Part shown: positions 7,669 through 51,355 of the stretch, one piece after another
Numbering within the stretch: position 1 is the stretch's first letter
How the letters are laid out: each line of letters begins with the position of its first letter
Source of the DNA: a virus
Taxonomy: Duplodnaviria > Heunggongvirae > Uroviricota > Caudoviricetes
Length of the DNA: 56,203 nucleotides
Direction: 5' to 3' (one strand)
IMG/VR virus record: IMGVR_UViG_2778260992_000008
Span: 1 to 56,203 of that record
Made by a program: the position numbers and the translations under genes
Notes under the pieces: model-generated
What the model was told of the DNA's origin: nothing
The model's input: only the letters and a program-made list of their open reading frames with translations
Databases searched by the model: none

Positions 7669-7975
7669 TTGCTTTTCTCCTATGGTTAAAATGAACGCGC
7701 GGGCGGGTATCCCATTAGCATTAGATAGCAGTGATTGACCGCTTAACAGATCCCGCCGTTGCGTGATATTTGTTTTTCGCTTCGCAGCGACACCGGGTTT
7801 TTAAAGAGCTTTAAGGTATGCGCCTTTTTGTGCTATTCCCTTATCTTTTTTCTTGCATCCTTGCAAGTCTGGCTTTACCTTGTCTGCAAGTTTACAGAAT
7901 GGCATTTACAGGTCAAGACTTGAAAAATACATTTTGTGACTTGCATCAAACTTTTTGGGGCGATAGGGTAGCGAC

Positions 7976-8623
7976 ATGAAAACAAAATGGTATGACTTAG
8001 CAAAACAACTCATGCGGGCGCAAGGTATGAGCCAGGATTCATTGGCGGACCTGATGGGGATCACGAAAGGCGGCTTATCGCACTGGCTGAACGGTCGCCG
8101 TGAGCCAAATCTTAATGATATTGCGCGGATCATGCGGGCGCTTGGTCGTCGGCAGTTTACGGTCACACATGATGGGATGGTTATTGATGATTCACTTTCT
8201 AATACACTGCCGGGAGCGCCACCGCTCGACGTAGGGCGTTATCCGGTGATTGACTGGAAAGACGCAGGAAACTACATGGAAGAAGCAAAACGCGCATCAT
8301 TACCGCACGTTAACACTAGCGTGATTTGTTCGGATGATAGTTATTGGCTGGTTGCAAAAGGTGAATCGATGAACGCGCCGCAAGGATTGAGCATCCCGGC
8401 GGGAACGATGATACTTGTTGATCCACACGCGCCAGCTATTGACGGCAAACTGGTTATAGCCCAATTGGAGGAAGGGCAAACGCCGACGTTTAAACAGTTG
8501 ATTATTGATGGAGGTCAAAGGCTTTTACGCTCGCTTAATCCGTTGTATCCACCAATCCCGCTAAATCCTGAATCAAAAATTATTGGCGTGGTGGTGGACG
8601 CGAAGATCGTAAACCTGCCATAA
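7976..8623 (+). CDS. cI-like repressor, HTH plus S24 LexA-type peptidase domain
   Basis: N-terminal HTH (SQDSLADLMGITKGGLSHWLNGRR); C-terminal GESM Ser and FKQL Lys dyad; divergent from replication genes. Confidence 0.85.
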   Translation: MKTKWYDLAKQLMRAQGMSQDSLADLMGITKGGLSHWLNGRREPNLNDIARIMRALGRRQFTVTHDGMVIDDSLSNTLPGAPPLDVGRYPVIDWKDAGNYMEEAKRASLPHVNTSVICSDDSYWLVAKGESMNAPQGLSIPAGTMILVDPHAPAIDGKLVIAQLEEGQTPTFKQLIIDGGQRLLRSLNPLYPPIPLNPESKIIGVVVDAKIVNLP

Positions 8624-8653: not shown

Positions 8654-8732
8654 GCCCGGAAAACACCAAAACGTAAACCGAAAACGGGTTTTATCATTTG
8701 AATATCAATGAGATAGAAAATATTTTAAAAAA

Positions 8733-8775
8733 GTATACAAAATGGATTGACTCGACATATCACAGGGCGTATATT
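8733..8775 (+). promoter_or_regulatory. sigma70-like early promoter with upstream ACAAAATGG element
   Basis: TTGACT (8747-8752), 17-nt spacer, TATATT (8770-8775); GTATACAAAATGGA immediately upstream. Confidence 0.55.
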
Positions 8776-9098
8776 GCGAATCAAAGGAAGGAAGCAGGAA
8801 ACAAAAAGCACCTTCCAGGCACTTTAAAAATCAGGCTTAACACCTTGTCAACCGTGGAGTAACTCCCCGATGTGGGACCGAAAGCGGCACTGATAACAAG
8901 GCGCATGGGGTGTTTAAAGCGTTACATCCCCCACGAAACCGCACGCAAGGCGACGAGTCAGATCACTTGGATTGAGTGGTGTCACACCGGAAACGGCGAT
9001 GATTGCGGGATTAGTTGAACGATGTTAAGCCATTCTCTTTAACAATCTGGTCGCTACTGAAATGTAGCAAACATGATTTTAACTAAGGAGAAAAGATT

Positions 9099-9389
9099 AT
9101 GAATGCGAAGATCATTTACGGTAACTGTGAGAGCAAATTAAATGCACGGAAGCGCCGCCGGATGAAGCGGGCAGCCGAACAAGACGAAGGCCCGCACATA
9201 CAGAAGATTGATAAAGTGGAAAAAGCTATTCGCTTTGCAAATGAGGAAAGATGCAAATCAAATAGCGTTAAAGAACGTCGCAAGGGCGCGACAAAATGGT
9301 ATCAGGAAAATGAAAGCGGCAACTACTTCCACGCAACGCAGCCGCGCCAGCTTGGGGAGATCCCGTTAGATAAAGTTCGATACCATTAA
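9099..9389 (+). CDS. hypothetical basic protein (96 aa)
   Basis: Strong RBS AAGGAGAAAAGATT-ATG; first ORF after a ~320-nt leader. Confidence 0.5.
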   Translation: MNAKIIYGNCESKLNARKRRRMKRAAEQDEGPHIQKIDKVEKAIRFANEERCKSNSVKERRKGATKWYQENESGNYFHATQPRQLGEIPLDKVRYH

Positions 9390-20793: not shown

Positions 20794-21014
20794 AAATCTG
20801 GCAGGCTATCGACGTAGTTGATAACGAATTATCTATGTTCGCCACTGACGGAAAGCGCGTGGTGATCGCTACATGGACGCGTAACCATGATGATATCGCT
20901 TTTCGTCGCAAGGCTGCGGAGTGGCTTTTCTCTGATGGCGGCTACACGATGAACATCGCACAGCTTGCCAGAATGAAGGATGAAAAGCTGGTAGACAGCT
21001 ACACAACTGCATAG
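20784..21014 (+). CDS. hypothetical protein
   Basis: 76-aa ORF overlapping upstream gene end. Confidence 0.35.
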   Translation: MELKIWQAIDVVDNELSMFATDGKRVVIATWTRNHDDIAFRRKAAEWLFSDGGYTMNIAQLARMKDEKLVDSYTTA

Positions 21015-21024
21015 CGGGGGAAAT

Positions 21025-21258
21025 ATGCGTATCTATGAGCACAAGCGGGATAAAACCCGCTTTTTTGTTCGTGCTGGCGTGGCGTACCAGTATCACGACT
21101 GCGGATATATTGAGGCGCTTGCTTACGATCTGGACTTCGAACAAGAAAAAGAATGGTTCGATTTCAAAATTTACCGGAAGCGGAAACCAACGCGCGACGA
21201 GCGCCACGCTATCCGCGATTTTCTAATCAGCATTGACCGCTGGGAGGCAGAGGAATGA
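21025..21258 (+). CDS. hypothetical protein
   Basis: 77-aa ORF in tandem array. Confidence 0.35.
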   Translation: MRIYEHKRDKTRFFVRAGVAYQYHDCGYIEALAYDLDFEQEKEWFDFKIYRKRKPTRDERHAIRDFLISIDRWEAEE

Positions 21259-21548
21259 AAGCAAAGAAAGCAGCAGATCAGAAAGCGTTAGTTATCGCAA
21301 CAACGGATGTATCGTTATTCACGAAGGGAGAAGAAATAGATCTTAAATTGCTTTTTGGCATGTTTGAGCCACACGAAAGGCCGTGGTTTGTTCATGAAGA
21401 TAAACAAGGCAATATGCGCGTTGTAGTGCCGGACAGAAACAGCGACATATTTTTTGCTATTCCAGACCCGTTACATGACGAGGAAATGCTGGCGGTATTG
21501 TTGATCGCTGATGCTGTTACTTACAAGGGAAAGAAATATGAAAGTTAA
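21255..21548 (+). CDS. hypothetical protein
   Basis: 97-aa ORF, 4-nt overlap with upstream gene. Confidence 0.35.
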   Translation: MKAKKAADQKALVIATTDVSLFTKGEEIDLKLLFGMFEPHERPWFVHEDKQGNMRVVVPDRNSDIFFAIPDPLHDEEMLAVLLIADAVTYKGKKYES

Positions 21549-21765
21549 ATTCTTGCACGATCACGGCTACCCGTCATTAAAACGCGTAGTAGGGGAAGTG
21601 GTAGACGTTGTTCACTCTGATGATGTGACCTGCGTCATTTTGGGTAAAGACCTTATTGCTCACGGTGCTGATCAGAATTATATCAATCCGGCGTGGTCGT
21701 ACACGTTCAGTCTTGGGGACTTTGTAGGCGATAAGGGGCGCGGGCTGCAAGTAGTCGAGGGTTAA
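21538..21765 (+). CDS. hypothetical protein
   Basis: ATG 21538 with RBS AGGGA; begins MKVKF like two other array members. Confidence 0.35.
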   Translation: MKVKFLHDHGYPSLKRVVGEVVDVVHSDDVTCVILGKDLIAHGADQNYINPAWSYTFSLGDFVGDKGRGLQVVEG

Positions 21766-21769
21766 TATC

Positions 21770-21985
21770 ATGGATGTTTACGAAGATTTATACCTTCAAA
21801 CAAATACCCGCACTTTTTATTTTTTGAAAAACGGCGTCGTATATCGCAGCGATGATGGGGTAATAATGAAGGAGTGGTTATTTAAACGCAAAGACCTGAT
21901 TGATGACCTGGTTTTTGCCGGGATATTCCGTAAACGTCCGGCTAACCTGGAAGAAGAAATGTTGATCGATGAGGTATTAAAATGA
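21770..21985 (+). CDS. hypothetical protein
   Basis: 71-aa ORF in tandem array. Confidence 0.35.
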   Translation: MDVYEDLYLQTNTRTFYFLKNGVVYRSDDGVIMKEWLFKRKDLIDDLVFAGIFRKRPANLEEEMLIDEVLK

Positions 21986-22233
21986 AAGTGAAAGTGAATT
22001 ATTTCAGGGCAAAAGACAAGGCAACAGGGAAGCGTGTAGCCGTCCTGGTTAATGAGGCCAATTACATGTTTATCCTTCAGCCGTGGTGCATAGCTGATTA
22101 TAACGATGATTATCGACGTCATGCTGCGCGGCGGGCGGTTGGCATGAAAGGCTGGCAACCGCGCGACATGCTTAATTATTGCGATTGGAACCTGATAGCA
22201 AAATATACGGTCGATTATAAAGGGGTTTTCTGA
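21982..22233 (+). CDS. hypothetical protein
   Basis: 83-aa ORF, 4-nt overlap; begins MKVKV. Confidence 0.35.
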   Translation: MKVKVNYFRAKDKATGKRVAVLVNEANYMFILQPWCIADYNDDYRRHAARRAVGMKGWQPRDMLNYCDWNLIAKYTVDYKGVF

Positions 22234-22517
22234 TGGAAAGCTATTTTGATCGGATGTTTTGCCGCACAACTTGTAACGAATACAAATTCACTACGGGCCA
22301 GGCTTACAAAATTCACAGGCTGCGCAATGCGACCACTGATCCGATGGTGTTTATCATGGACGACAACGAAGGCGCGTTTTACCAGGTATTCTACTGCGGT
22401 GATCTTGATTATGCACTGGTGAAAAATATCACCGGACAATGGCTTGCGCAGTTTTCCAGATACCCGGCTGATGTTGACACGAAAAATTATTTAAAGGTGG
22501 CTGATAATGCAAGTTAA
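22233..22517 (+). CDS. hypothetical protein
   Basis: 94-aa ORF, 1-nt overlap with upstream gene. Confidence 0.35.
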   Translation: MESYFDRMFCRTTCNEYKFTTGQAYKIHRLRNATTDPMVFIMDDNEGAFYQVFYCGDLDYALVKNITGQWLAQFSRYPADVDTKNYLKVADNAS

Positions 22518-22944: not shown

Positions 22945-22968
22945 AACGTGATCTACCCCGCAAAGTTT

Positions 22969-23008
22969 ACAAAATGGCATTGTTCAGGCAGTGCCATTTT
23001 GTTATAAA
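22969..23008 (+). promoter_or_regulatory. inverted repeat ACAAAATGGCA/TGCCATTTTGT overlapping a sigma70-like promoter
   Basis: 11-nt arms at 22969-22979 and 22992-23002; TTGTTC (22980-22985), 17-nt spacer, TATAAA (23003-23008). Confidence 0.5.
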
Positions 23009-35148: not shown

Positions 35149-35527
35149 GATTGCCCGATTCAGTTACAAGGCATTAGCCACTATTTACCCCGTAACGTAT
35201 GACGACTGGAACAATTCGAAGGTATACGGGCAACCTTACCTGATTGATTGCGCCTGGACGGCGACGGAAGGTAAAGACGAAGACGAGCGCGGGAGTGAAA
35301 CCGATGTTAGTTACGTCATATTTACCGAACTGCTTTACAACCTGCAACCAGTGGAGCGCCCCCGGAAAGGGTGGATGATTGCCCCAGGTGATACCACGGC
35401 TTTTTCTGATCCGCTTGAGGCTGGCGCGAATGAGATCTCCGGTGTGGTTGAATGGGACATGAGCATGTTTAACGACACGCCGGATTATAAAATCATTACA
35501 GGTAATAGCGTGCAAAGTAAATATTAA
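35141..35527 (+). CDS. head-tail joining / head closure protein
   Basis: 128-aa ORF by position; overlapping starts. Confidence 0.35.
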   Translation: MSKIARFSYKALATIYPVTYDDWNNSKVYGQPYLIDCAWTATEGKDEDERGSETDVSYVIFTELLYNLQPVERPRKGWMIAPGDTTAFSDPLEAGANEISGVVEWDMSMFNDTPDYKIITGNSVQSKY

Positions 35528-36876: not shown

Positions 36877-36884
36877 CATTTAAT

Positions 36885-36909
36885 GGGGCCATCCGGCCCC
36901 TTTTCTTTT
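36885..36909 (+). terminator. rho-independent terminator/attenuator after major tail gene
   Basis: GGGGCC-ATCC-GGCCCC hairpin followed by TTTTCTTTT. Confidence 0.6.
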
Positions 36910-36915
36910 AGGGTG

Positions 36916-37602
36916 ATGATTATGATTCATGTTCGTACCGGACAATTTGAAATTAAGGTTGATGGTCACGCATATATATTTAATCCATCCTTTGCAGCTA
37001 TGGCGCGAATCGGTGATGATTCCGAACTGGTGCGCTACTTTGCCATTGTTCATGGTGGAAGGTATCCGAAAATCTTCCCTATCGATCCAGACCTTCGCAA
37101 ACGGGTTTTAGCGCGGTGTTATGGTGAACTGGTGCAGACGGCTATTCACATTCTGAAATCATGCGCAGAAAGCGAAATAGGGCCGCTGGTGGGCGAGTGT
37201 AGATTTACTCCGGCGGGCAAATTACGGTTGCGCCCTGGCTTGCTGCCAACTCAGGACGTCATCACGCTGGCGCAACATTGCATGTACCACGGTTTAATCG
37301 GTGACATCCCCGGTAACAAACAACAAACTGATAAGCAGGAAGGGGAATATAAATCAACGTTCGATGTTCTTGATTACGTTTATTCCGCCGTTGCTCATCT
37401 TGGACTATCTGAATCAGAGGCGTGGGCCATGACCATGACCGGATATAGGGCCGCTGTACGCGCTAAAACGCCGCCAGAAGCGAAAAACGAGAAAAGACGA
37501 CCAGATGCCGCCATAGATAAAAAGGCTTATGACGATGGGATGCAGGCCGCAAGAAAGGCACTGGAAAGAATGAAAAAATTAAAACAGAAAAAAGCCCGGT
37601 AG
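36916..37602 (+). CDS. tail assembly chaperone (putative)
   Basis: Position between major tail and tape-measure genes; ATG 36916 (track ORF begins 36883 inside the hairpin). Confidence 0.4.
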   Translation: MIMIHVRTGQFEIKVDGHAYIFNPSFAAMARIGDDSELVRYFAIVHGGRYPKIFPIDPDLRKRVLARCYGELVQTAIHILKSCAESEIGPLVGECRFTPAGKLRLRPGLLPTQDVITLAQHCMYHGLIGDIPGNKQQTDKQEGEYKSTFDVLDYVYSAVAHLGLSESEAWAMTMTGYRAAVRAKTPPEAKNEKRRPDAAIDKKAYDDGMQAARKALERMKKLKQKKAR

Positions 37603-37614
37603 TTCCGGGCTTTT
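37593..37614. terminator. bidirectional hairpin terminator
   Basis: AGCCCGG-TAGTT-CCGGGCT with T-runs on both strands; sits between convergent genes. Confidence 0.55.
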
Positions 37615-37616
37615 GT

Positions 37617-38228
37617 TTAGTTCCAGTGGCAAGCATTTTTCACTTTGTTGATATGTTTTTCTAAGCCTTCGATGTTGAATGTTGCTTTTTCGATATAGCC
37701 CGCTTCCGGCAATGTTTCGATAATGAATTGTTTCTCGTTAAGCATTTTTTTAATCATCGGGATGGCTTTTTTGCCGTTCCATAATCCCAGGGCTTTATAG
37801 TTAGTTGCCCGTTGCCATTCTGCTTTCACCGCTTTATGTTCCCCGATCCGGTAGGTAACTTGGGTGGTATCGCCAGCATCCGCAATCATGTTATGCCAGG
37901 CTACAAACATTTTTGTTGTATTGGCTTTGCATTCGATAACTAATACCGGTTTATTTTTCTCTTTTGCTTTCAGTGCCGGGAAATCATCAAGCTGACCGTT
38001 AAATTTTACCGCTTTGACATGTAGCTGTACATTGGGTGTATCGTGCATATCGTCCTTACCTTCCCACACGGCCCACTGTTTCCCAATGTTATCCCGTTCC
38101 ATTTCTTGATGTTTTTCAGCTATTTCTTTTTCAAATTGTTTAATATTTTCAAGGCTTTTTGCTTGTTGTTCGCAACCAACCAGCCCAACCAGCGCCGCCA
38201 TTATTGCCACTTTCGCTAACCGTTTCAT
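37617..38228 (-). CDS. lipoprotein (accessory gene, opposite strand, inside tail module)
   Basis: Signal peptide plus lipobox MKRLAKVAIMAALVGLVGC; ATG 38228 with GGGG RBS; own promoter and terminator. Confidence 0.6.
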   Translation of the reverse strand: MKRLAKVAIMAALVGLVGCEQQAKSLENIKQFEKEIAEKHQEMERDNIGKQWAVWEGKDDMHDTPNVQLHVKAVKFNGQLDDFPALKAKEKNKPVLVIECKANTTKMFVAWHNMIADAGDTTQVTYRIGEHKAVKAEWQRATNYKALGLWNGKKAIPMIKKMLNEKQFIIETLPEAGYIEKATFNIEGLEKHINKVKNACHWN

Positions 38229-38276
38229 AAAACACCCCGTTTGCCTTGAATTACTAACCACTTCCTATAGCTTCTT

Positions 38277-38316
38277 TATACAAAATGGAGTCGTTAAAGC
38301 AAATCCATTTTGTATA
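38277..38316. promoter_or_regulatory. perfect inverted repeat TATACAAAATGGA-N14-TCCATTTTGTATA with divergent promoter elements
   Basis: 13-nt arms at 38277-38289 and 38304-38316; TATAAA-like hexamers at both ends, one per strand. Confidence 0.55.
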
Positions 38317-38354
38317 AAATAGTTACACAGATCACAAAAACGGAGATCAACGCT

Positions 38355-41237
38355 ATGGCTAAAAATGTAGGCGCGATTGAATACACGGTCGACGCCAAAA
38401 CCGGGTCGCTACTGGTTGCACAGAAAGAAGTAGACAAAGCAACCGGAGCGATGGAAAAAGACCTGCAACGGGTAGACACCGCCGCTGATAAGGTGAGTAA
38501 ATCCCTGGCTGGCTTATCCACGGTCGCCCGTGCGGTTGGCGCGGCACTGGTGACAAGAAAGATCATTGACTACGCCAACGCCTGGCAAGAAGTAAACAAT
38601 AAGCTGGTTAACTCCGTCCGGTCAAATGAATCACTGGAAGAAGTTACAAACCGGGTTTTTAAAGCCGCACAGAAATCAATGTCACCACTGGACGCCACCG
38701 CCGCGCTTTACTCCAAATTGGAACGCGCAACGCGTGACAGTGGACTAAGCGGGCGTGACCTGGCAAGCATCGTGGAAACGATTAACAAATCCTTTCAGGT
38801 GTCCGGTGCATCCGCAAGCGAAATGGAAGGCGGGATCAGACAATTGGCCCAGGCTTTGGGGTCTGGTGAATTGCGCGGCGATGAATTTAATAGCGTAATG
38901 GAGAACGCGCCACGCCTGGCGGAAGGTATCGCAAAATCAATGGGCGTATCCAGTACCGCATTACGTGAAATGGCGAAGGATGGCAAGATCACGAAAGATA
39001 TAATTATCGCAGCGGTCCGGGCGATGAAGTCCGAAGTCGATAAAGAATTCAGCAATATGGCGATCACCATGTCGGACGCCTTCACCGTCGCCACCAACAA
39101 CGCGACTAAGTATTTCGGTGAAAACTCCGTGATCCGTAGCGGGATTAACGCGTTTAACAGCACGCTGATTACCCTATCTGAAAACCTGGACGTTGTAACC
39201 GCCTCAGCCATCGCGCTTGGTGCTGTAATGGGTGGTCGGGCGTTGGGTGGCATTATCCAGGCAACGGCGGAAAACATCCGGCTGGCAGCCGCCAACCAGA
39301 AAGCAGCACAGGCCGCCGCGCAGCAGGCAGCAGCAGAAGCCAACCTGGCACGCCAGCAGCTACACACAGCCGCCGCCGGACTTAAAGCAGCATTGCAGGC
39401 AGAAGGGGAGGCCCGCGCCCACTACCAGGCCGCGCAGGGTACAAACGCCCACACCGCCGCGCTTGCTCGTCTCCGTGTAGCGCAAGCGCAAACCGCCGCC
39501 GCTTACACGGCTATGCGCACCGCTGCCACCACGGCTAACGCGGCAATCGTTGCTTCCGGTACAGCAGCAAAAGCCGCCAGTATCGGGATGCGGATCTTTA
39601 ATGGCGCGTTAGGGTTACTTGGTGGCCCCGCTGGCGCAATCATGACCGCCGCTATTTGCTTGGGTACGCTTATCCTTAACATGGAAAGCACCGAAGAGAA
39701 AGCCGCCAACGCAAAAGCCAAAATCGACGAATTGGCTATGTCGTTCGACGATATGAGCAAAAATGAACTGGAAGCGGCCTTAATTGAGATAAACAAACAA
39801 CTCAAAGACATTGAGGAAAACGCCCGGAAGGCAAAAGCCGAACTGGATCGTATGGTGAAAAACCGCGCTATCCTGGAAAAATTAGCACAGAGTGAGGATC
39901 CAGAAATTGCCGGGCCTGCAAAGGCGGCGTTAGGCATTGCCGATGACAATATGAAAACCTTAGAGGGTAAGGTTGACACAGCTAATAAAAACCTTGAAAA
40001 AGCCAACGAGAAAGCCGACGAAGCAAAAGCCCGCATTAATGGTACATACGTTCCGCCGAAACCTACCGGAACAGGAAGCGGCAGCGGTGGCAGCGGTGGC
40101 AAGGACGGGAAGGGCAAGAAACCGAAAAAATCTGATTGGGATAAGTTAGGCGATGAAGGCTTAAATATTTCCGACCAGTACAACAAAGACGCCGCCGCAA
40201 TGCGTAAACTTGGCGAAGAACAAAAAGCCCTGGATGCAGCGTACAAGCAAGGGAAGATCACTTATCTGGAATATACAGCCGCGAAGGAGGGCGCAAGCAA
40301 GGCACTGGCTGACACGCTGAAACAGTTACGCGAGGAAGAACAGCAAGCCAAATGGGACAGCCTTGTCTCTGATGAAGACAAGAAAAAAGGCCAGGTAGAC
40401 CCTATTCAGCAGTTGCAAAATGAATGGACTATCAGAAAGCAAATGCTCACTGATTTAGGCGCTACACAGGCCCAATTAAAAATGGAAGAGTTAGCCTATG
40501 AACAACAGCTAACCGCGCTCAAATGGGAACAATGGCAGGCACAAAGCGACACTAACGCGCTTATTGGTGATTGCGTCAACGGTTTAACAAGCGGCATGGG
40601 TAACGCCATTACCGGATTAGTCAATGGCACGCAATCCCTTAGCGAGATGTTTGCTAACCTGGGTAGTAACATCCTCGGCACGGTAGGTAACCGCTTATCT
40701 CAGATTGCAGCAAACTGGATAGCCGATCAGATCATGATGGAAAGCCAGAGCAAGGCAGCGCAAGCCAGTACCACGGCGGGCGCGGTAGCGGCGCAAGGTC
40801 AGATCGCAGCGGCAGCGGCCCCGGCAGCGGCGGCAACGGCGGCTTCAACTGGCGGTAGCTGGGCGGCGGCTGGTGCGGCGGCATTATCTGCGATCATGAC
40901 GCTGGCGACATCCATTTTTGGCGGCGGGCGTTATCATGGGGGTAGCGTAACTGGTGGCAACCTATACCGCGTGGGTGAGCATAACAAGCCAGAATTATTT
41001 CAGGCCACTAACGGGCGGCAATACATGATCCCCGGCGAAAACGGTCGCGTGGTAAGCAATAGCGCGATGGGTGGCGGCGGCATCAATATGCCTGTTAACA
41101 TCACAGTAAACACGACAAATGGTTTTGGCGAAGAAGACAGCAAGCGCCTACAACAGACAATCGAGAATACGGCAATGGGGATTATCAGGCGCGAAAGCCA
41201 ACGCCCTGGAGGCATGATCCAACCGCGCAAAAAATAA
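38355..41237 (+). CDS. tail tape measure protein
   Basis: ~960 aa, Ala-rich coiled-coil with Gly-rich C-terminal segment; ATG 38355 with RBS GGAG. Confidence 0.85.
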   Translation: MAKNVGAIEYTVDAKTGSLLVAQKEVDKATGAMEKDLQRVDTAADKVSKSLAGLSTVARAVGAALVTRKIIDYANAWQEVNNKLVNSVRSNESLEEVTNRVFKAAQKSMSPLDATAALYSKLERATRDSGLSGRDLASIVETINKSFQVSGASASEMEGGIRQLAQALGSGELRGDEFNSVMENAPRLAEGIAKSMGVSSTALREMAKDGKITKDIIIAAVRAMKSEVDKEFSNMAITMSDAFTVATNNATKYFGENSVIRSGINAFNSTLITLSENLDVVTASAIALGAVMGGRALGGIIQATAENIRLAAANQKAAQAAAQQAAAEANLARQQLHTAAAGLKAALQAEGEARAHYQAAQGTNAHTAALARLRVAQAQTAAAYTAMRTAATTANAAIVASGTAAKAASIGMRIFNGALGLLGGPAGAIMTAAICLGTLILNMESTEEKAANAKAKIDELAMSFDDMSKNELEAALIEINKQLKDIEENARKAKAELDRMVKNRAILEKLAQSEDPEIAGPAKAALGIADDNMKTLEGKVDTANKNLEKANEKADEAKARINGTYVPPKPTGTGSGSGGSGGKDGKGKKPKKSDWDKLGDEGLNISDQYNKDAAAMRKLGEEQKALDAAYKQGKITYLEYTAAKEGASKALADTLKQLREEEQQAKWDSLVSDEDKKKGQVDPIQQLQNEWTIRKQMLTDLGATQAQLKMEELAYEQQLTALKWEQWQAQSDTNALIGDCVNGLTSGMGNAITGLVNGTQSLSEMFANLGSNILGTVGNRLSQIAANWIADQIMMESQSKAAQASTTAGAVAAQGQIAAAAAPAAAATAASTGGSWAAAGAAALSAIMTLATSIFGGGRYHGGSVTGGNLYRVGEHNKPELFQATNGRQYMIPGENGRVVSNSAMGGGGINMPVNITVNTTNGFGEEDSKRLQQTIENTAMGIIRRESQRPGGMIQPRKK

Positions 41238-41242
41238 AATAA

Positions 41243-41270
41243 CCCCCGGCGAAAGCTGGGGGTTTTCTTT
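41243..41270. terminator. bidirectional hairpin terminator after tape measure gene
   Basis: CCCCCGGC-GAAA-GCTGGGGG followed by TTTTCTTT; T-rich on the opposite strand too. Confidence 0.6.
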
Positions 41271-41448
41271 ATTCAACTTCGTCATTTTTAAATTCGTTGT
41301 TTACATAAAGCTGTAATGCGCTTATCAGTTCGGCGGCTTGCTTTTTGTCTATGACGATTAATTCGCAGTCACTTTCAAGCCATAATCTTTCGTCATATTC
41401 AATGCTAAGATTAATCCGCCGACAACCTTCCGTTTCATGAATAATCAT
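41269..41448 (-). CDS. small acidic protein (59 aa)
   Basis: MIIHETEGCRRINLSIEYDERLWLESDCELIVIDKKQAAELISALQLYVNNEFKNDEVE; RBS GGGGGAAATA; ends at the bidirectional terminator. Confidence 0.35.
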   Translation of the reverse strand: MIIHETEGCRRINLSIEYDERLWLESDCELIVIDKKQAAELISALQLYVNNEFKNDEVE

Positions 41449-41539
41449 TATTTCCCCCTATAATCGACCATTCCGCGCAATATATCCCCTTCCGAAAATT
41501 ACCAACCAAATATTCCAGATCTCCCGCCATGTAAATTTA

Positions 41540-41689
41540 TCATCTTCCATATCTCACCCCATCGCGCTTATAAGGCTTGTTATCAGCAAACGGGATTAAC
41601 GCATCGTTTGCCACCTGGCGATTAAACCAATCTTTCAGGACAACCAGGGAAAACCGGATGCCGTAGCTATGTAATTCGTGCCATTTCAT
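41540..41689 (-). CDS. small hypothetical protein (49 aa)
   Basis: ATG overlaps stop of upstream 84-aa gene (ATGA). Confidence 0.25.
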   Translation of the reverse strand: MKWHELHSYGIRFSLVVLKDWFNRQVANDALIPFADNKPYKRDGVRYGR

Positions 41690-41940
41690 TTATGACACCC
41701 CCGCACGCCGCATAATTCATTGTATTTATGATGCTCAACAATCAACCAAACTTTTAGATCCTGGCTGTAAAGCCGCCAATCAGGGTTGATATCGAATTTA
41801 AAACCATAACCATCTCGTAACTTTTTGGGGTGGGCTTCTTTATTTAGGAAAGCATTTAATAAAGCCTTACCCTTTTTGATGATCCGGTCCTGCGCGTTTT
41901 TTTGTGCTTTCAAATTTTTATCAATCGCTACCAGTTTCAT
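41686..41940 (-). CDS. hypothetical basic protein (84 aa)
   Basis: ORF in track; second gene of a tightly packed minus-strand cassette. Confidence 0.45.
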   Translation of the reverse strand: MKLVAIDKNLKAQKNAQDRIIKKGKALLNAFLNKEAHPKKLRDGYGFKFDINPDWRLYSQDLKVWLIVEHHKYNELCGVRGCHK

Positions 41941-41958
41941 AGCCCACCCCCATCATCC

Positions 41959-42126
41959 TTAGTTGACCGCTTTCAGGTAAAAATCCCGGTATTCGTTTTC
42001 CTTCACGTTCATGTAGAATTGGCCCATTTTAAATGCATCGTCGAAGCCTTTAACGATCGCCACTTCCACTTGTTCGAATGCGTCGTTAAGCATCACGACC
42101 GCGTAGTGTTTATCGTTGCGTTTCAT
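41959..42126 (-). CDS. small hypothetical protein (55 aa)
   Basis: ATG 42126 preceded by AAGGAGG; track ORF 41959-42201 begins further upstream. Confidence 0.4.
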   Translation of the reverse strand: MKRNDKHYAVVMLNDAFEQVEVAIVKGFDDAFKMGQFYMNVKENEYRDFYLKAVN

Positions 42127-42295
42127 CTTGGGCCTCCTTTGTTGGTACTGCTTTTCTTCTTGCTTTCTGTATACATCTTGTTGCGTCCTGTGTGAAGCCA
42201 TTTTGTAAACTGGTTATAATTCTTGTGATGAAGTTCTCATTTTTCGCGTAGAAGCGCGTAAAGATGTACACAAAATGTAACTTATAGGGGGAATT

Positions 42296-42965: not shown

Positions 42966-43103
42966 TTAGAAGTTCATGTGCATCAAGCCCATTGGGTGAG
43001 CGTGCGCCATGTTCTCAGCTATTGCGCACCAATCCCAATCCGCAGCGTGCACGCCAAATACTATCAAGCCCATTGCGATTAGCGCTAAAACTTCGATTTT
43101 CAT
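42966..43103 (-). CDS. small secreted His/Met-rich peptide (45 aa)
   Basis: MKIEVLALIAMGLIVFGVHA signal-like N-terminus then ADWDWCAIAENMAHAHPMGLMHMNF; RBS GGGGTGAACC. Confidence 0.35.
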   Translation of the reverse strand: MKIEVLALIAMGLIVFGVHAADWDWCAIAENMAHAHPMGLMHMNF

Positions 43104-43114
43104 GGTTCACCCCA

Positions 43115-43186
43115 TTAATTCAGAAAGGCATAAACGATGGCAATCGCGCCAGCCACTACCAAAACATTTTCGATTACTTCATCCAT
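43115..43186 (-). CDS. small hydrophobic peptide (23 aa)
   Basis: MDEVIENVLVVAGAIAIVYAFLN; RBS GGCGGTGA. Confidence 0.3.
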   Translation of the reverse strand: MDEVIENVLVVAGAIAIVYAFLN

Positions 43187-43195
43187 AATCACCGC

Positions 43196-43444
43196 CTATA
43201 AGTTATCACGCAGATAATTAACGCCCTTGTCAGTGACGAATGAATGATTAACCTGGTTTTCATCCGTCATAATAATGAATAACTTTTCCTGTAAGTATTT
43301 TGCTTTTGGGTACAGCGTTAAACAGACCTGATACAGTATCCCGCGCTCAATCAGCAAATCAATAAATTCGTGCTCATGATAACCGATGAGACGGGCGGCC
43401 TGTTTCAACGTGTACACATAATCACCGTGATTGCGCCGCCCCAT
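43196..43444 (-). CDS. hypothetical protein (82 aa), possibly DNA-binding
   Basis: ORF in track; YTLKQAARLIGYHEHEFIDLLIERGIL has HTH-like character. Confidence 0.4.
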   Translation of the reverse strand: MGRRNHGDYVYTLKQAARLIGYHEHEFIDLLIERGILYQVCLTLYPKAKYLQEKLFIIMTDENQVNHSFVTDKGVNYLRDNL

Positions 43445-43452
43445 GTTGCCGC

Positions 43453-43806
43453 CTATTTATCAAAGCAACTTAAATTATCGATACAGAAGTCTTTAGCAGC
43501 ATTTTCGTATTCGCGTTTTGCTTCAGGATCGTCAGCCGGGAAGCCTTTTGCGTGGATTTCACCAGGGCAAGACTGATCCATAGAGTCTGCAAATTCAACA
43601 TTGACGTTAAAGTTAATATCTTTCGGGTTCATATCTTCCACCTTCTCGGCTATTTGTACCGGAGTTATTTTGAATTCCCTGGCGCGCCCGAAGAAGCGAA
43701 CAAGTTTTTCTCCTTCCTCGACTGCCATTTCGTAACTGTCATGTAAGCCGTAACCTTCCCAATCCTTACTGCCTGCCATCCATACATCGAGACGGTATTT
43801 TTGCAT
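43453..43806 (-). CDS. hypothetical acidic protein (117 aa)
   Basis: ATG 43806 four nt after upstream stop; track ORF extends to 43860. Confidence 0.4.
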   Translation of the reverse strand: MQKYRLDVWMAGSKDWEGYGLHDSYEMAVEEGEKLVRFFGRAREFKITPVQIAEKVEDMNPKDINFNVNVEFADSMDQSCPGEIHAKGFPADDPEAKREYENAAKDFCIDNLSCFDK

Positions 43807-43807
43807 T

Positions 43808-43975
43808 TTACTGATCCCCGCTTTTAATCGGTTTAATCCGGTAGCCCAGGACGCGATCATCTTTTTCCGATAGGTCGAGGGCCGTTTCTAGGGCGTCGCC
43901 AGGGTTATCGAATTCAGCCTCGATATCACGCCCGTTACTCATGAATAAGGTCAGTCGCCATAGTTTATCGTTCAT
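43808..43975 (-). CDS. small hypothetical acidic protein (55 aa)
   Basis: MNDKLWRLTLFMSNGRDIEAEFDNPGDALETALDLSEKDDRVLGYRIKPIKSGDQ; RBS AAGGGCGCGGG; first gene downstream of minus-strand promoter. Confidence 0.35.
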   Translation of the reverse strand: MNDKLWRLTLFMSNGRDIEAEFDNPGDALETALDLSEKDDRVLGYRIKPIKSGDQ

Positions 43976-44061: not shown

Positions 44062-44106
44062 GTATGATTTGGCGTGACGCAGATCACAAAATCAGAAGGT
44101 GAGAAA

Positions 44107-50367: not shown

Positions 50368-50960
50368 TGGCAACCTTCGGAGCTTATTTGAGATTAAGTA
50401 ACGGGAATATTTTCGTTACACCGGAAGCGACGCCGCTTTGCTTATATAAACGGGTGGCATTAACATCATCGAATCAAACCGTCGCCGTGCCACCCGGAAA
50501 ACCCGTGATGGTATTTGTGAAAAGCACTACCGCCGCCGCTGTATTAGCTTATAGAAATAGTTCATCGACTTTACTGATCGGTGCTGGTTCGGGGTATGCG
50601 TATATTTTCAGTATTTTCCCGCCATCGCTGCCGAAATGGGGAATGGCTATCTGGAACGCTTCCGGGGAACTGGTGCTAACTAATGAATCAAGAATATTAA
50701 CAGACCTTGTAACCGTGGGGACAGCAGGATCAAGTGGCGGGATTTATATAGACCAGACGTTATCCGGTTCTTATGCTATTTGCCCCCAATTGTTAGGGGC
50801 GCTCGTTGGACAGGGTAGTGCCTCCATTTATGCGGCGGCTTATTACAACGGAAGCACGACCAGAATTTACGGTATCCAGGCGGGTAGCGTATATGCACCA
50901 ACTGGCTATATCAACCACGGGAACGCTATCACCGCCATTAAAACCGACGCCTATGATTAA
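50367..50960 (+). CDS. hypothetical tail-associated protein (MATFG paralog 2)
   Basis: 197 aa; ATGA overlap; begins MATFGAYL and shares WNASGE with paralog 1. Confidence 0.45.
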   Translation: MATFGAYLRLSNGNIFVTPEATPLCLYKRVALTSSNQTVAVPPGKPVMVFVKSTTAAAVLAYRNSSSTLLIGAGSGYAYIFSIFPPSLPKWGMAIWNASGELVLTNESRILTDLVTVGTAGSSGGIYIDQTLSGSYAICPQLLGALVGQGSASIYAAAYYNGSTTRIYGIQAGSVYAPTGYINHGNAITAIKTDAYD

Positions 50961-51196
50961 TTCAGTTCCGGGCAATCCGTTTTCTTGAAGTGGTCAACGC
51001 TTACCCATTGAAAATTAAACGGATACCCGGCCTTAACCATTTTATGACCGCCAACATCCGCGACACCGAAGACTGCAACCGCATATTCATTACCGCCAGT
51101 TTGATAAATTGCCGTGCATTCACGTTTAGGCATGTCAGCGCAACCAACCAGACCAGCAACCATTGCAACGATAGCGATATTTTTTAAGCCTTTCAT
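50957..51196 (-). CDS. Cor-like lipoprotein (candidate superinfection exclusion)
   Basis: Signal plus lipobox MKGLKNIAIVAMVAGLVGC; ATG 51196 with RBS GGAGGG; between J and side tail fibre, where cor sits in lambdoid phages. Confidence 0.45.
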   Translation of the reverse strand: MKGLKNIAIVAMVAGLVGCADMPKRECTAIYQTGGNEYAVAVFGVADVGGHKMVKAGYPFNFQWVSVDHFKKTDCPELN

Positions 51197-51355
51197 TGTC
51201 TTACCCTCCGTTGTTTCGTTGGTTGTAGTATCCACAAACTGTATTTTCTCAACATTGATATAAATCAACAAATACATTTTGTATAAACCAAAAATGTAAC
51301 ATAGATCACAAAATGGTAGAATTATTCCGTTAATTAACATAATGGAGTCATTGCA

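Follow-up and report, generated by a model that had tools for sequence, protein, structure and literature searches.

A VasI/TagO-family lipoprotein gene as exchangeable cargo in the tail module of an mEp021-type coliphage, probably controlled through a repressor-linked inverted repeat

The DNA analyzed here, called the window below, is a stretch of 56,203 nucleotides (nt) from the IMG/VR virus record IMGVR_UViG_2778260992_000008, and the element under study is a gene for a lipoprotein precursor of 203 amino acids (aa), encoded antisense to the tail genes and placed just before the tape measure gene. The cassette is an accessory “moron” in the tail module of an mEp021-type phage, and related phages carry unrelated envelope proteins in the same slot. 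Its product belongs to the VasI/TagO family, named after proteins that belong to type VI secretion systems (T6SS). The most likely role of the lipoprotein, with a probability of about one half, would be to block incoming phages at the envelope. In addition, the inverted repeat lying between the two genes consists of two copies of a site that is probably an operator of the CI-type repressor of the phage.

The lipoprotein gene and its protein family

The following features were assigned to the gene:

37617-38228, minus strand: gene for the VasI/TagO-family lipoprotein precursor, 203 aa, stop codon at 37617-37619 (from the open reading frame (ORF), PF11319, phrog_1848, the AlphaFold (AF2) model and the third-position bias)
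38172-38228, minus strand: signal peptide and lipobox L-V-G-C, with Cys19 predicted to be lipidated and to begin the mature protein (read from the sequence)
38233-38238, minus strand: Shine-Dalgarno-like GGGGTG, 5 nt 5' of the ATG at 38228 (read from the sequence)

The minus-strand ORF extended over 37617-38261 when counted from GTG. This GTG at 38261 was considered an unlikely start, and the ATG at 38228, backed by the homologues and by the Shine-Dalgarno sequence, was preferred; the ribosome-binding site of the gene occupying the same slot in mEp021 is annotated as GGGGG. The N-terminus of the protein, MKRLAKVAIMAALVGLVGC, fitted the lipobox rule [LVI][ASTVI][GAS]C with Cys19, and the signal peptide, MKRLAKVAIMAALVG-LVGC, was that of a bacterial lipoprotein in the sequence test applied. 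Residues G15, L16, G18 and C19 were invariant in all 11 close homologues, and the mature protein comprises 184 aa. When the gene was compared with three homologues, the substitutions were found mainly at third codon positions (46 of 72, 71 of 124, and 7 of 8), and this concentration indicated purifying selection on the minus-strand frame. An earlier note, made from the letters of this DNA, had read here an antisense 203-aa lipoprotein with the lipobox LVGC inside the tail module, and the ORF, the lipobox and the purifying selection confirmed it. The G+C content of the gene is 41.7%, versus 48.2% in the DUF6246 gene on its other side and 53.5% in the tape measure gene.

The protein is predicted to be exported and lipid-anchored. 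Since residue +2 is Glu and not Asp, the outer membrane is its most likely predicted location by the +2 rule. The same residue is N, D, R or G in the relatives, so that membrane sorting may differ among them.

Membership of the VasI/TagO family was established by a match to PF11319 (VasI; E-value 6.7e-17, 62.2 bits versus a cut-off of 26.5), in which residues 31-202 aligned with profile positions 14-184 of 184, and phrog_1848 (E-value 8e-46) was the only phrog family matched. An exhaustive profile search collected 1754 family representatives, only five of them at E<=1e-30, which points to a small and distinct clade; the wider family was reached only by this exhaustive search, as a word-indexed search with alignment added almost nothing. 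The three named protein clusters hold 35, 74, and 69 members. The gene is rare: among 5426 complete E. coli genomes, the VasI version was present in at least 5. RefSeq already holds the lipoprotein as a T6SS-associated TagO.

The homology with the VasI/TagO proteins of the T6SS covers the whole beta-sandwich, including two invariant cysteines, R and W, and both proteins are extracytoplasmic. Nevertheless, it is very unlikely that the lipoprotein modulates the type VI secretion of the host or shields the periplasm from T6SS attack. It scored 52.6 bits with TIGR03360, the NCBIfam equivalog of the T6SS VasI, versus a cut-off of 124.2 bits; it lies outside a T6SS cluster and bears a lipobox, not a plain signal. 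No T6SS genes were present near the homologues in any genomic context read, and the nearest relatives were all found in phage tail modules. Moreover, the distant members of the family mostly carry simply a signal peptide or a membrane anchor, with a lipobox in few of them.

The AlphaFold model obtained from 84 diverse sequences was confident, with a predicted local distance difference test score (pLDDT) of 90.1 and a predicted template modelling score (pTM) of 0.78; a structure prediction from the 12 close homologues only reached a pLDDT of 36 and was discarded. The model consists of the signal peptide, a helix at about residues 20-46, a beta-sandwich of eight to nine strands and a C-terminal helix. 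Residues C100, R127, C200 and W202 were invariant across the 84 sequences and, taken together with the predicted export, the invariance of the two cysteines suggests a C100-C200 disulfide. According to the model, the beta-sandwich domain would hang in the periplasm on a helical tether. The predicted viral structures that matched it were uncharacterised proteins of T4-like and other phages.

The beta-sandwich of the model is IalB-like, and the identity to IalB is only 10%. A host-fitness or virulence factor comparable to Lom and Bor of lambda or IalB of Bartonella, acting in adhesion, invasion, serum resistance or envelope robustness, is quite unlikely: besides this low identity, the mechanism of IalB is itself unknown, a lipoprotein held in the inner leaflet would not normally reach the cell surface, and the alternative cargoes of the slot, described below, are small envelope proteins that gave no match to virulence families.

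The checks by homology and structure prediction proposed in the earlier note were thus carried out and gave the VasI/TagO family with a confident model; this assignment had been overlooked in the note, and so had a separate Cor lipoprotein at 50957-51196. Clear homology to a tail-assembly factor, named there as one of the findings that would refute the reading, was absent from the family/profile and PDB sequence searches.

The slot and its exchangeable cargo

The lipoprotein gene is flanked by the following features:

36883-37602, plus strand: DUF6246 gene, in the tail-chaperone position (PF19759, E-value 2.8e-53)
37590-37614, both strands: bidirectional intrinsic terminator of the DUF6246 gene (plus) and the lipoprotein gene (minus), called on both strands
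38355-41237, plus strand: tape measure gene (PF20155 TMP_3, E-value 4e-59; phrog_1107, E-value 2e-193)

The tail genes of the window showed about 75% DNA identity to those of Enterobacteria phage mEp021 and its relatives, and the CI-type repressor (7976-8623) was 92.6% identical to that of mEp021. Because of these two resemblances the window was assigned to the mEpimmI group, temperate and Nus-dependent siphophages of E. coli (PMC11893012), and judged by its sequence it is an mEp021-type temperate siphophage of this host. A prophage of E. coli RM9245 was 98.3% identical over the lipoprotein locus.

The place of the gene between a tail chaperone gene and the tape measure gene, as had been proposed, was borne out for the TMP_3 flank and for the presence of the DUF6246 gene on the other side. 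The latter gene lies 3' of the tail tube gene (Phage_tail_2), and it can be called a chaperone gene by position only; according to the annotation of mEp021, mass spectrometry of the virion proteins did not include gp62, the homologue in that phage. The hairpin proposed to end both the lipoprotein gene and the gene upstream of it was recovered as the terminator at 37590-37614, with a 10-bp stem containing six G-C pairs, a 5-nt loop, T-runs on both strands and folding energies of -17.0 and -16.0 kcal/mol. It overlaps the stop codon of the DUF6246 gene and ends 2 nt from that of the lipoprotein gene, and the terminator TERM_9 of mEp021 is annotated at the equivalent place. Another terminator-like G+C-rich hairpin, GGGGCCATCCGGCCCC followed by a T-run, was observed at 36885-36900 (plus strand), at the start of the DUF6246 gene and after the tube gene; mEp021 has an annotated terminator (TERM_8) at the start of this gene as well.

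In every close homologue that could be placed, the gene lay on the opposite strand between the DUF6246 and tape measure genes of a prophage, and a relative with 46% identity was located on the other side of the DUF6246 gene, still antisense within the tail module. The slot was always filled by opposite-strand cargo in the relatives, but the cargo differed between them. A 138-aa protein with a signal for signal peptidase I was found in mEp021 (gp63), in MagusPhagus and in strain 09-00049, whereas E21845 has the same 138-aa protein together with one of 100 aa that contains two hydrophobic helices, N1286 carries this 100-aa protein alone, and slots of the STEC306-308 type hold the VasI lipoprotein together with a second lipoprotein of 124 aa. 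All of these cargoes are predicted from sequence to be envelope proteins, the alternative ones being small.

Unrelated cargoes of the slot (in relatives L001, L002 and L011) begin with the same codons as the lipoprotein gene at 38205-38228 (MKRLAK/MKRLIK...). Because these first codons are held in common, one recombination joint lies within the stretch encoding the signal peptide, and the second boundary of the exchange is at the common terminator. The cassette has its own terminator and a deviating G+C content, as in the definition of morons by Juhala and Hendrix, and it is replaced by other cargo in mEp021, MagusPhagus, 09-00049, E21845 and N1286.

VasI-like genes were also found in other temperate phages. 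In the Brucella phage BiPBO1 such a gene starts 9 nt 3' of the repressor gene and reads in the same direction. A Labrenzia phage has one in its immunity region, encoded by the same strand as the repressor, and in a P2-like coliphage it is located at the prophage end.

The position of the gene inside the tail module could also be explained by an accessory function in virion assembly or lysis, the upstream repeat then serving the late transcript merely as a hairpin or as a place of RNA processing, and indeed the repeat would fold in a read-through RNA with -21.6 kcal/mol. This explanation is highly improbable. The gene is on the opposite strand and encodes a predicted exported lipoprotein, relatives that build the same tails swap in unrelated cargo, no tail or lysis family was matched, and the slot gene of mEp021, gp63, is not annotated as a virion protein. 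At about 15 other intergenic places the half-site of the repeat is present singly, as would be expected of a protein-binding site and not of a hairpin.

Further opposite-strand cassettes were observed in the tail module at 41269-42201 and 42966-43975 (both minus strand). The first includes a protein with a ParE-like toxin domain (41686-41940; PF24732, E-value 2e-11) and the second a protein with a KilAC/ANT antirepressor domain (43196-43444; PF03374, E-value 7e-7). mEp021 matches this architecture (gp65-68 and gp71-74).

The inverted repeat and the operator-like sites

The region between the lipoprotein and tape measure genes contains the following features, in which the arms were scored with a position weight matrix (PWM):

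38275-38289, no strand: left arm of the repeat, a copy of the operator-like site (PWM 26.2 bits), holding TATAAA at 38275-38280 (minus), the candidate -10 hexamer of the lipoprotein gene
38290-38303, no strand: 14-nt spacer with two weak -35-like hexamers, including TTTGCT at 38298-38303 (minus)
38304-38318, no strand: right arm, a copy of the operator-like site (PWM 25.0 bits), with TATAAA at 38313-38318
38329-38339, plus strand: AGATCACAAAA element in the leader of the tape measure gene, an exact 11-mer with other copies at 44081-44091 and 51303-51313

The inverted repeat is the only perfect one of at least 13 nt (loop of 3-40 nt) within the 56-kb window; first-order Markov surrogates contained 0.07 such repeats per window, with any at all in 6 of 100. 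It had been described as a perfect repeat of 13 nt separated by 14 nt, with -10-like hexamers facing both ways. Its perfection and its spacer were confirmed, but the arms are really 15 nt long and extend to 22 nt at 86% identity. The hexamer TATAAA does point outward in both arms, although it lacks the T at position 6; on the right side, TAAAAT (38315-38320, plus strand), extending 2 nt beyond the arm, provides a better -10 for a candidate tape measure promoter. The claim that the lipoprotein gene is driven from the repeat had to be weakened. When the control regions of six phages were aligned, the repeat and about 40 nt on each side were kept whatever the cargo, and AACGA in the spacer was invariant among the relatives. 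The repeat consequently belongs to the conserved backbone and not to the cargo, and the gene is better described as probably controlled through it. Most relatives have a conserved ORF of 29 codons (MKNVNYRPNEHERYADFIEEMLKSLKNKN) between the repeat and the cargo gene (relative L003, 3899-3988; also mEp021 and MagusPhagus), which is deleted in the window and in relative L006.

A second full copy of the repeat module, inverted, was found at 22963-23008, with two sites 27 bp apart and the same flanking AAGAAGCT and AGATCAC motifs. This module, which has no counterpart in mEp021, edges another block of opposite-strand genes (20869-22269). The 11-mer AGATCACAAAA occurs only at 38329, 44081 and 51303, each time 5' of a tail gene (tape measure, L-like and fibre, respectively) and 11-14 nt 3' of a -10-like hexamer inside an operator-like site. 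It contains GATC, and may act in the leader, mark a place of pausing or Q loading, or be recognized by Dam or SeqA.

Several other identities were considered for the repeat. A terminator was rejected, as no T-run follows the stem on either strand, and so was a nut site, as a boxA/boxB-like element lies elsewhere (about 9030-9070). A late promoter of the T4 type (TATAAATA-like) was rejected as well, since a Q-type antiterminator is present and no late sigma factor was identified. Partial matches to Fis, IHF and DnaA sites were seen by eye and set aside, given that the exact site recurs beside the repressor gene of an unrelated phage.

The arms represent a 13-nt quasi-palindromic site, ATACAAAATGKA, which occurs about 20 times in the window, including at the repressor gene:

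1017, 3973, 5256, 7888, 7925, 8731, 9385, 12827, 12851, 16677, 16743, 22963, 22990, 38274, 38301, 42194, 42264, 43988, 44025, 51270: starts of the 19-nt PWM windows of the operator-like sites

The half-site consensus (T)ATACAAAATG(G/T)A gave 13 matches versus 2.9 expected, and PWM hits of at least 12 bits numbered 19 versus 1.85 in surrogates. As judged by comparing their coordinates with the ORF map and with the annotation of mEp021, the PWM hits fell without exception between genes or on a stop codon. mEp021 carries such sites at the same places. The two arms of the repeat are identical and among the top-scoring sites in the genome.

At the immunity region, an apparent leaderless cI promoter was recognized (TTGCAT-17-TAGGGT-6-ATG, 7941-7978, with the ATG at 7976). 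One of the two sites there (7888-7906 and 7925-7943) is centred at -42 of this promoter, while the other overlies the divergent early promoter (TTGACC-16-TAAACT) at its -10 and spacer, an arrangement that resembles the OR region of lambda with PRM and PR. A third site (8731-8749) abuts the -35 of a strong early rightward promoter (8747-8775), which is followed by a nut-like element and by an N-like gene whose product is Arg-rich. The order of site, -35, 17 nt and -10 recurs at this promoter and at the next opposite-strand cassette (42194-42212), where the site also lies within the spacer of the rightward promoter of a minor tail gene. A boxA-like CTCTTTAAC and a boxB-like hairpin (GCTAC TGAAAT GTAGC) were observed at 9020-9075 (plus strand), followed on its 3' side by an ORF for an Arg-rich protein of 96 aa (9099-9389, plus strand); together they resemble the nutL/N-like antiterminator pair of mEp021.

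The Klebsiella phage KPP5665-2 (39 kb) is unrelated, but its repressor is 51% identical to that of the window, with an almost identical helix-turn-helix. Its best site, with 21.8 bits and the exact 12-mer ATACAAAATGGA, was found between the repressor and cro-like genes, and another one just 3' of the repressor gene. Since the sites flank the repressor gene and the exact site recurs in KPP5665-2, the site is probably an operator of the Rep021-type (immI) family of CI repressors; the description of the mEpimmI group does not define operators (PMC11893012). In KPP5665-2, a site of 20.3 bits was also observed at 35421-35439, with the region of the Q gene on one side and the holin gene on the other, near the expected late promoter.

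Many copies dispersed over short intergenic spaces are also known from the stoperators of L5-type mycobacteriophages (PMC9283540). However, stoperators are asymmetric and oriented, whereas the candidate sites of the window are quasi-palindromic, and the orientation bias relative to transcription that is the hallmark of stoperators was looked for and not found. The sites of the window also differ in overlapping promoter-like hexamers where opposite-strand cassettes adjoin the neighbouring genes.

A mechanism that would join these observations can be proposed. The opposite-strand cassettes with their bidirectional terminators would break up the late operon. Behind each cassette, transcription of the tail genes would resume from sigma-70 promoters, and in the lysogen the CI-type repressor would hold these restart promoters closed. 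The same operator-like sites would also govern the divergent promoters of the cargo. If each arm of the repeat is taken as an operator, the outward and overlapping promoters of the lipoprotein and tape measure genes would be switched directly by the repressor. The geometry scan placed the left arm at -15 of the leftward and at -42 to -44 of the rightward candidate promoter, and each arm lies 42-44 bp 5' of the predicted start of the opposite promoter. A consensus promoter scan called no promoter in the repeat, and the -35 hexamers of both outward candidates match just 3 of 6 positions.

The consequence for the lipoprotein gene can be read in two ways. The site at -42 could activate its promoter, as lambda CI does at PRM, while repression should come from the site covering its own -10, which is just as strong. 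Since the sites at about -15 and -42 are equal, the lysogen may repress the gene with the same likelihood as it may activate it. If repression prevails, the repressor would silence the gene in the lysogen and the lipoprotein would be made upon infection or induction, masking a receptor or entry route, so that the infected cell is spared superinfection and the progeny is not lost on debris, as with Llp of T5. Such protection in the lytic phase agrees with the presence, in both promoters, of one operator-like site at about -15, where it covers the -10 and spacer, and of a further one at -42, and with two identical, top-scoring arms in a geometry like that of lambda PR with OR1 and OR2. It is the main rival explanation, but nonetheless an unlikely one. 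The VasI-like genes of BiPBO1 and the Labrenzia phage, beside the repressor and on its strand, point to expression in the lysogen, gene 15 of HK97, which occupies the same slot, is expressed from the prophage, and a second weak -10 (TAGTAA, 38251-38256) would put the left arm near -40, an activating geometry.

Candidate role of the lipoprotein and known systems

The reading that was preferred is that the lipoprotein would protect the phage-carrying cell at its envelope from incoming phages, by superinfection exclusion or defence. An envelope protein for exclusion or host fitness had been suggested in the earlier note, and this stood as the best-supported interpretation, with blocking at the envelope favored by the slot, the kinds of cargo in it, the homologues linked to a repressor gene, and the precedent of SDIC4B.

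With respect to the slot, the closest known case is gene 15 of HK97, the first moron described and the one that gave rise to the term (Juhala 2000; Cumby 2012; reviewed in PMC3594210). Its product, gp15, is an inner-membrane protein that is expressed from the prophage and blocks genome entry by other phages (PMC3594210). Like the lipoprotein gene, gene 15 lies between the chaperone gene for tail tube assembly and the tape measure gene, has a deviating G+C and encodes an envelope product; it forms an independent transcription unit, as the lipoprotein gene may do. However, gp15 is a small YebO-like protein, unrelated in sequence and not a lipoprotein, and the cassette of the window differs by its opposite strand and by a control region of operator-like sites.

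With respect to the product, the lipoproteins Cor (phi80, N15 and HK022) and Lpp of the mEpimmI phages are likewise encoded by prophages within the structural gene cluster, and their exclusion of phages takes effect at the receptor or during entry (PMC11893012). The signal peptides are similar, MKGLKNIAIVAMVAGLVGC in Cor versus MKRLAKVAIMAALVGLVGC in the lipoprotein. In contrast, Cor and Lpp have about 60 aa in their mature form and are encoded beside the fibre gene, while the lipoprotein has 184 aa when mature and belongs to another family in another slot; it gave no profile match to the Cor family phrog_1119, and the mEpimmI paper mentions neither TagO nor VasI (PMC11893012). The window has a gene of the Cor kind as well:

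50957-51196, minus strand: Cor-family lipoprotein gene, 79 aa, MKGLKNIAIVAMVAGLVGC... (phrog_1119, E-value 5e-24), just 5' of the long fibre gene

The ORF of this gene is listed as 127 aa, an extension that is probably wrong. Another phage lipoprotein, Llp of T5, protects the infected cell and the progeny by blocking the receptor; it differs in being small, unrelated in sequence, expressed early in a strictly lytic phage and encoded beside the gene of the receptor-binding protein.

A protective function for this type of fold comes from SDIC4B of Serratia defence islands, which has a VasI-like fold and alone protects E. coli 10-200-fold against several phages (bioRxiv 10.1101/2024.01.28.577318). 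Like the lipoprotein, it represents a VasI-type fold outside a T6SS cluster, and the protection it gives is modest. It differs in that its gene neighbours BrxR in defence islands of the chromosome and is not part of the tail module of a prophage, and it was likened to the lipoprotein by the description of its fold.

Several points weigh against the protective role and the control proposed for it. According to its authors, SDIC4B has the fold and not the sequence in common with VasI (bioRxiv 10.1101/2024.01.28.577318), which makes the precedent indirect, and a 2026 review lists the function of TagO/VasI as unknown even within the T6SS (PMC13584744). The PDB sequence search gave no solved relative of the lipoprotein. 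Likewise, PADLOC-DB 2.0, a library of 2023 that may lack SDIC4, gave no family at E<=0.01 for it, nor for seven other accessory proteins. The phage already carries Cor, and because of this a second exclusion protein would have to target another step or other phages. As to the control, the candidate lipoprotein promoter is weak, with TTTGCT 17 nt 5' of TATAAA, a -35 matching 3 of 6 positions and the final T missing, and arms that are operators of equal strength should shut both promoters in the lysogen, which would speak against classical lysogenic conversion. At the early rightward promoter (8747-8775) the only site is that at -42, by itself not enough to explain repression, and the basis of the operator identity is position and a single cross-phage comparison.

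The kind of element is already known, both as a moron between the chaperone and tape measure genes and as a prophage exclusion lipoprotein, and since envelope-protein morons in prophage tail modules are a well-known theme, the finding is useful for annotation and unsurprising in that respect. What is new is the recognition of a “T6SS” protein as prophage cargo, for which the RefSeq name TagO is misleading, the interpretation of the slot as a cassette in which envelope proteins are exchanged, and a candidate operator network of the immI repressor. A broader and rather speculative proposal is that about 20 operators genome-wide, one or two at every opposite-strand cassette junction, would silence the tail restart promoters and switch the divergent moron promoters by the -42 geometry of the repressor's own promoter, with VasI/TagO as a general periplasmic guard against tail-like injection devices. 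If true, a lambda-type PR/PRM switch would have been copied throughout a coliphage, functionally akin to the mycobacteriophage stoperators, and the guard role would be the first function for an orphan T6SS accessory family. The operator model offers a testable account of how a late operon interrupted by cassettes stays silent in lysogens. Furthermore, VasI-family genes recur in temperate phages, twice beside a repressor gene, and together with SDIC4B they provide a tractable route to the function of the family.

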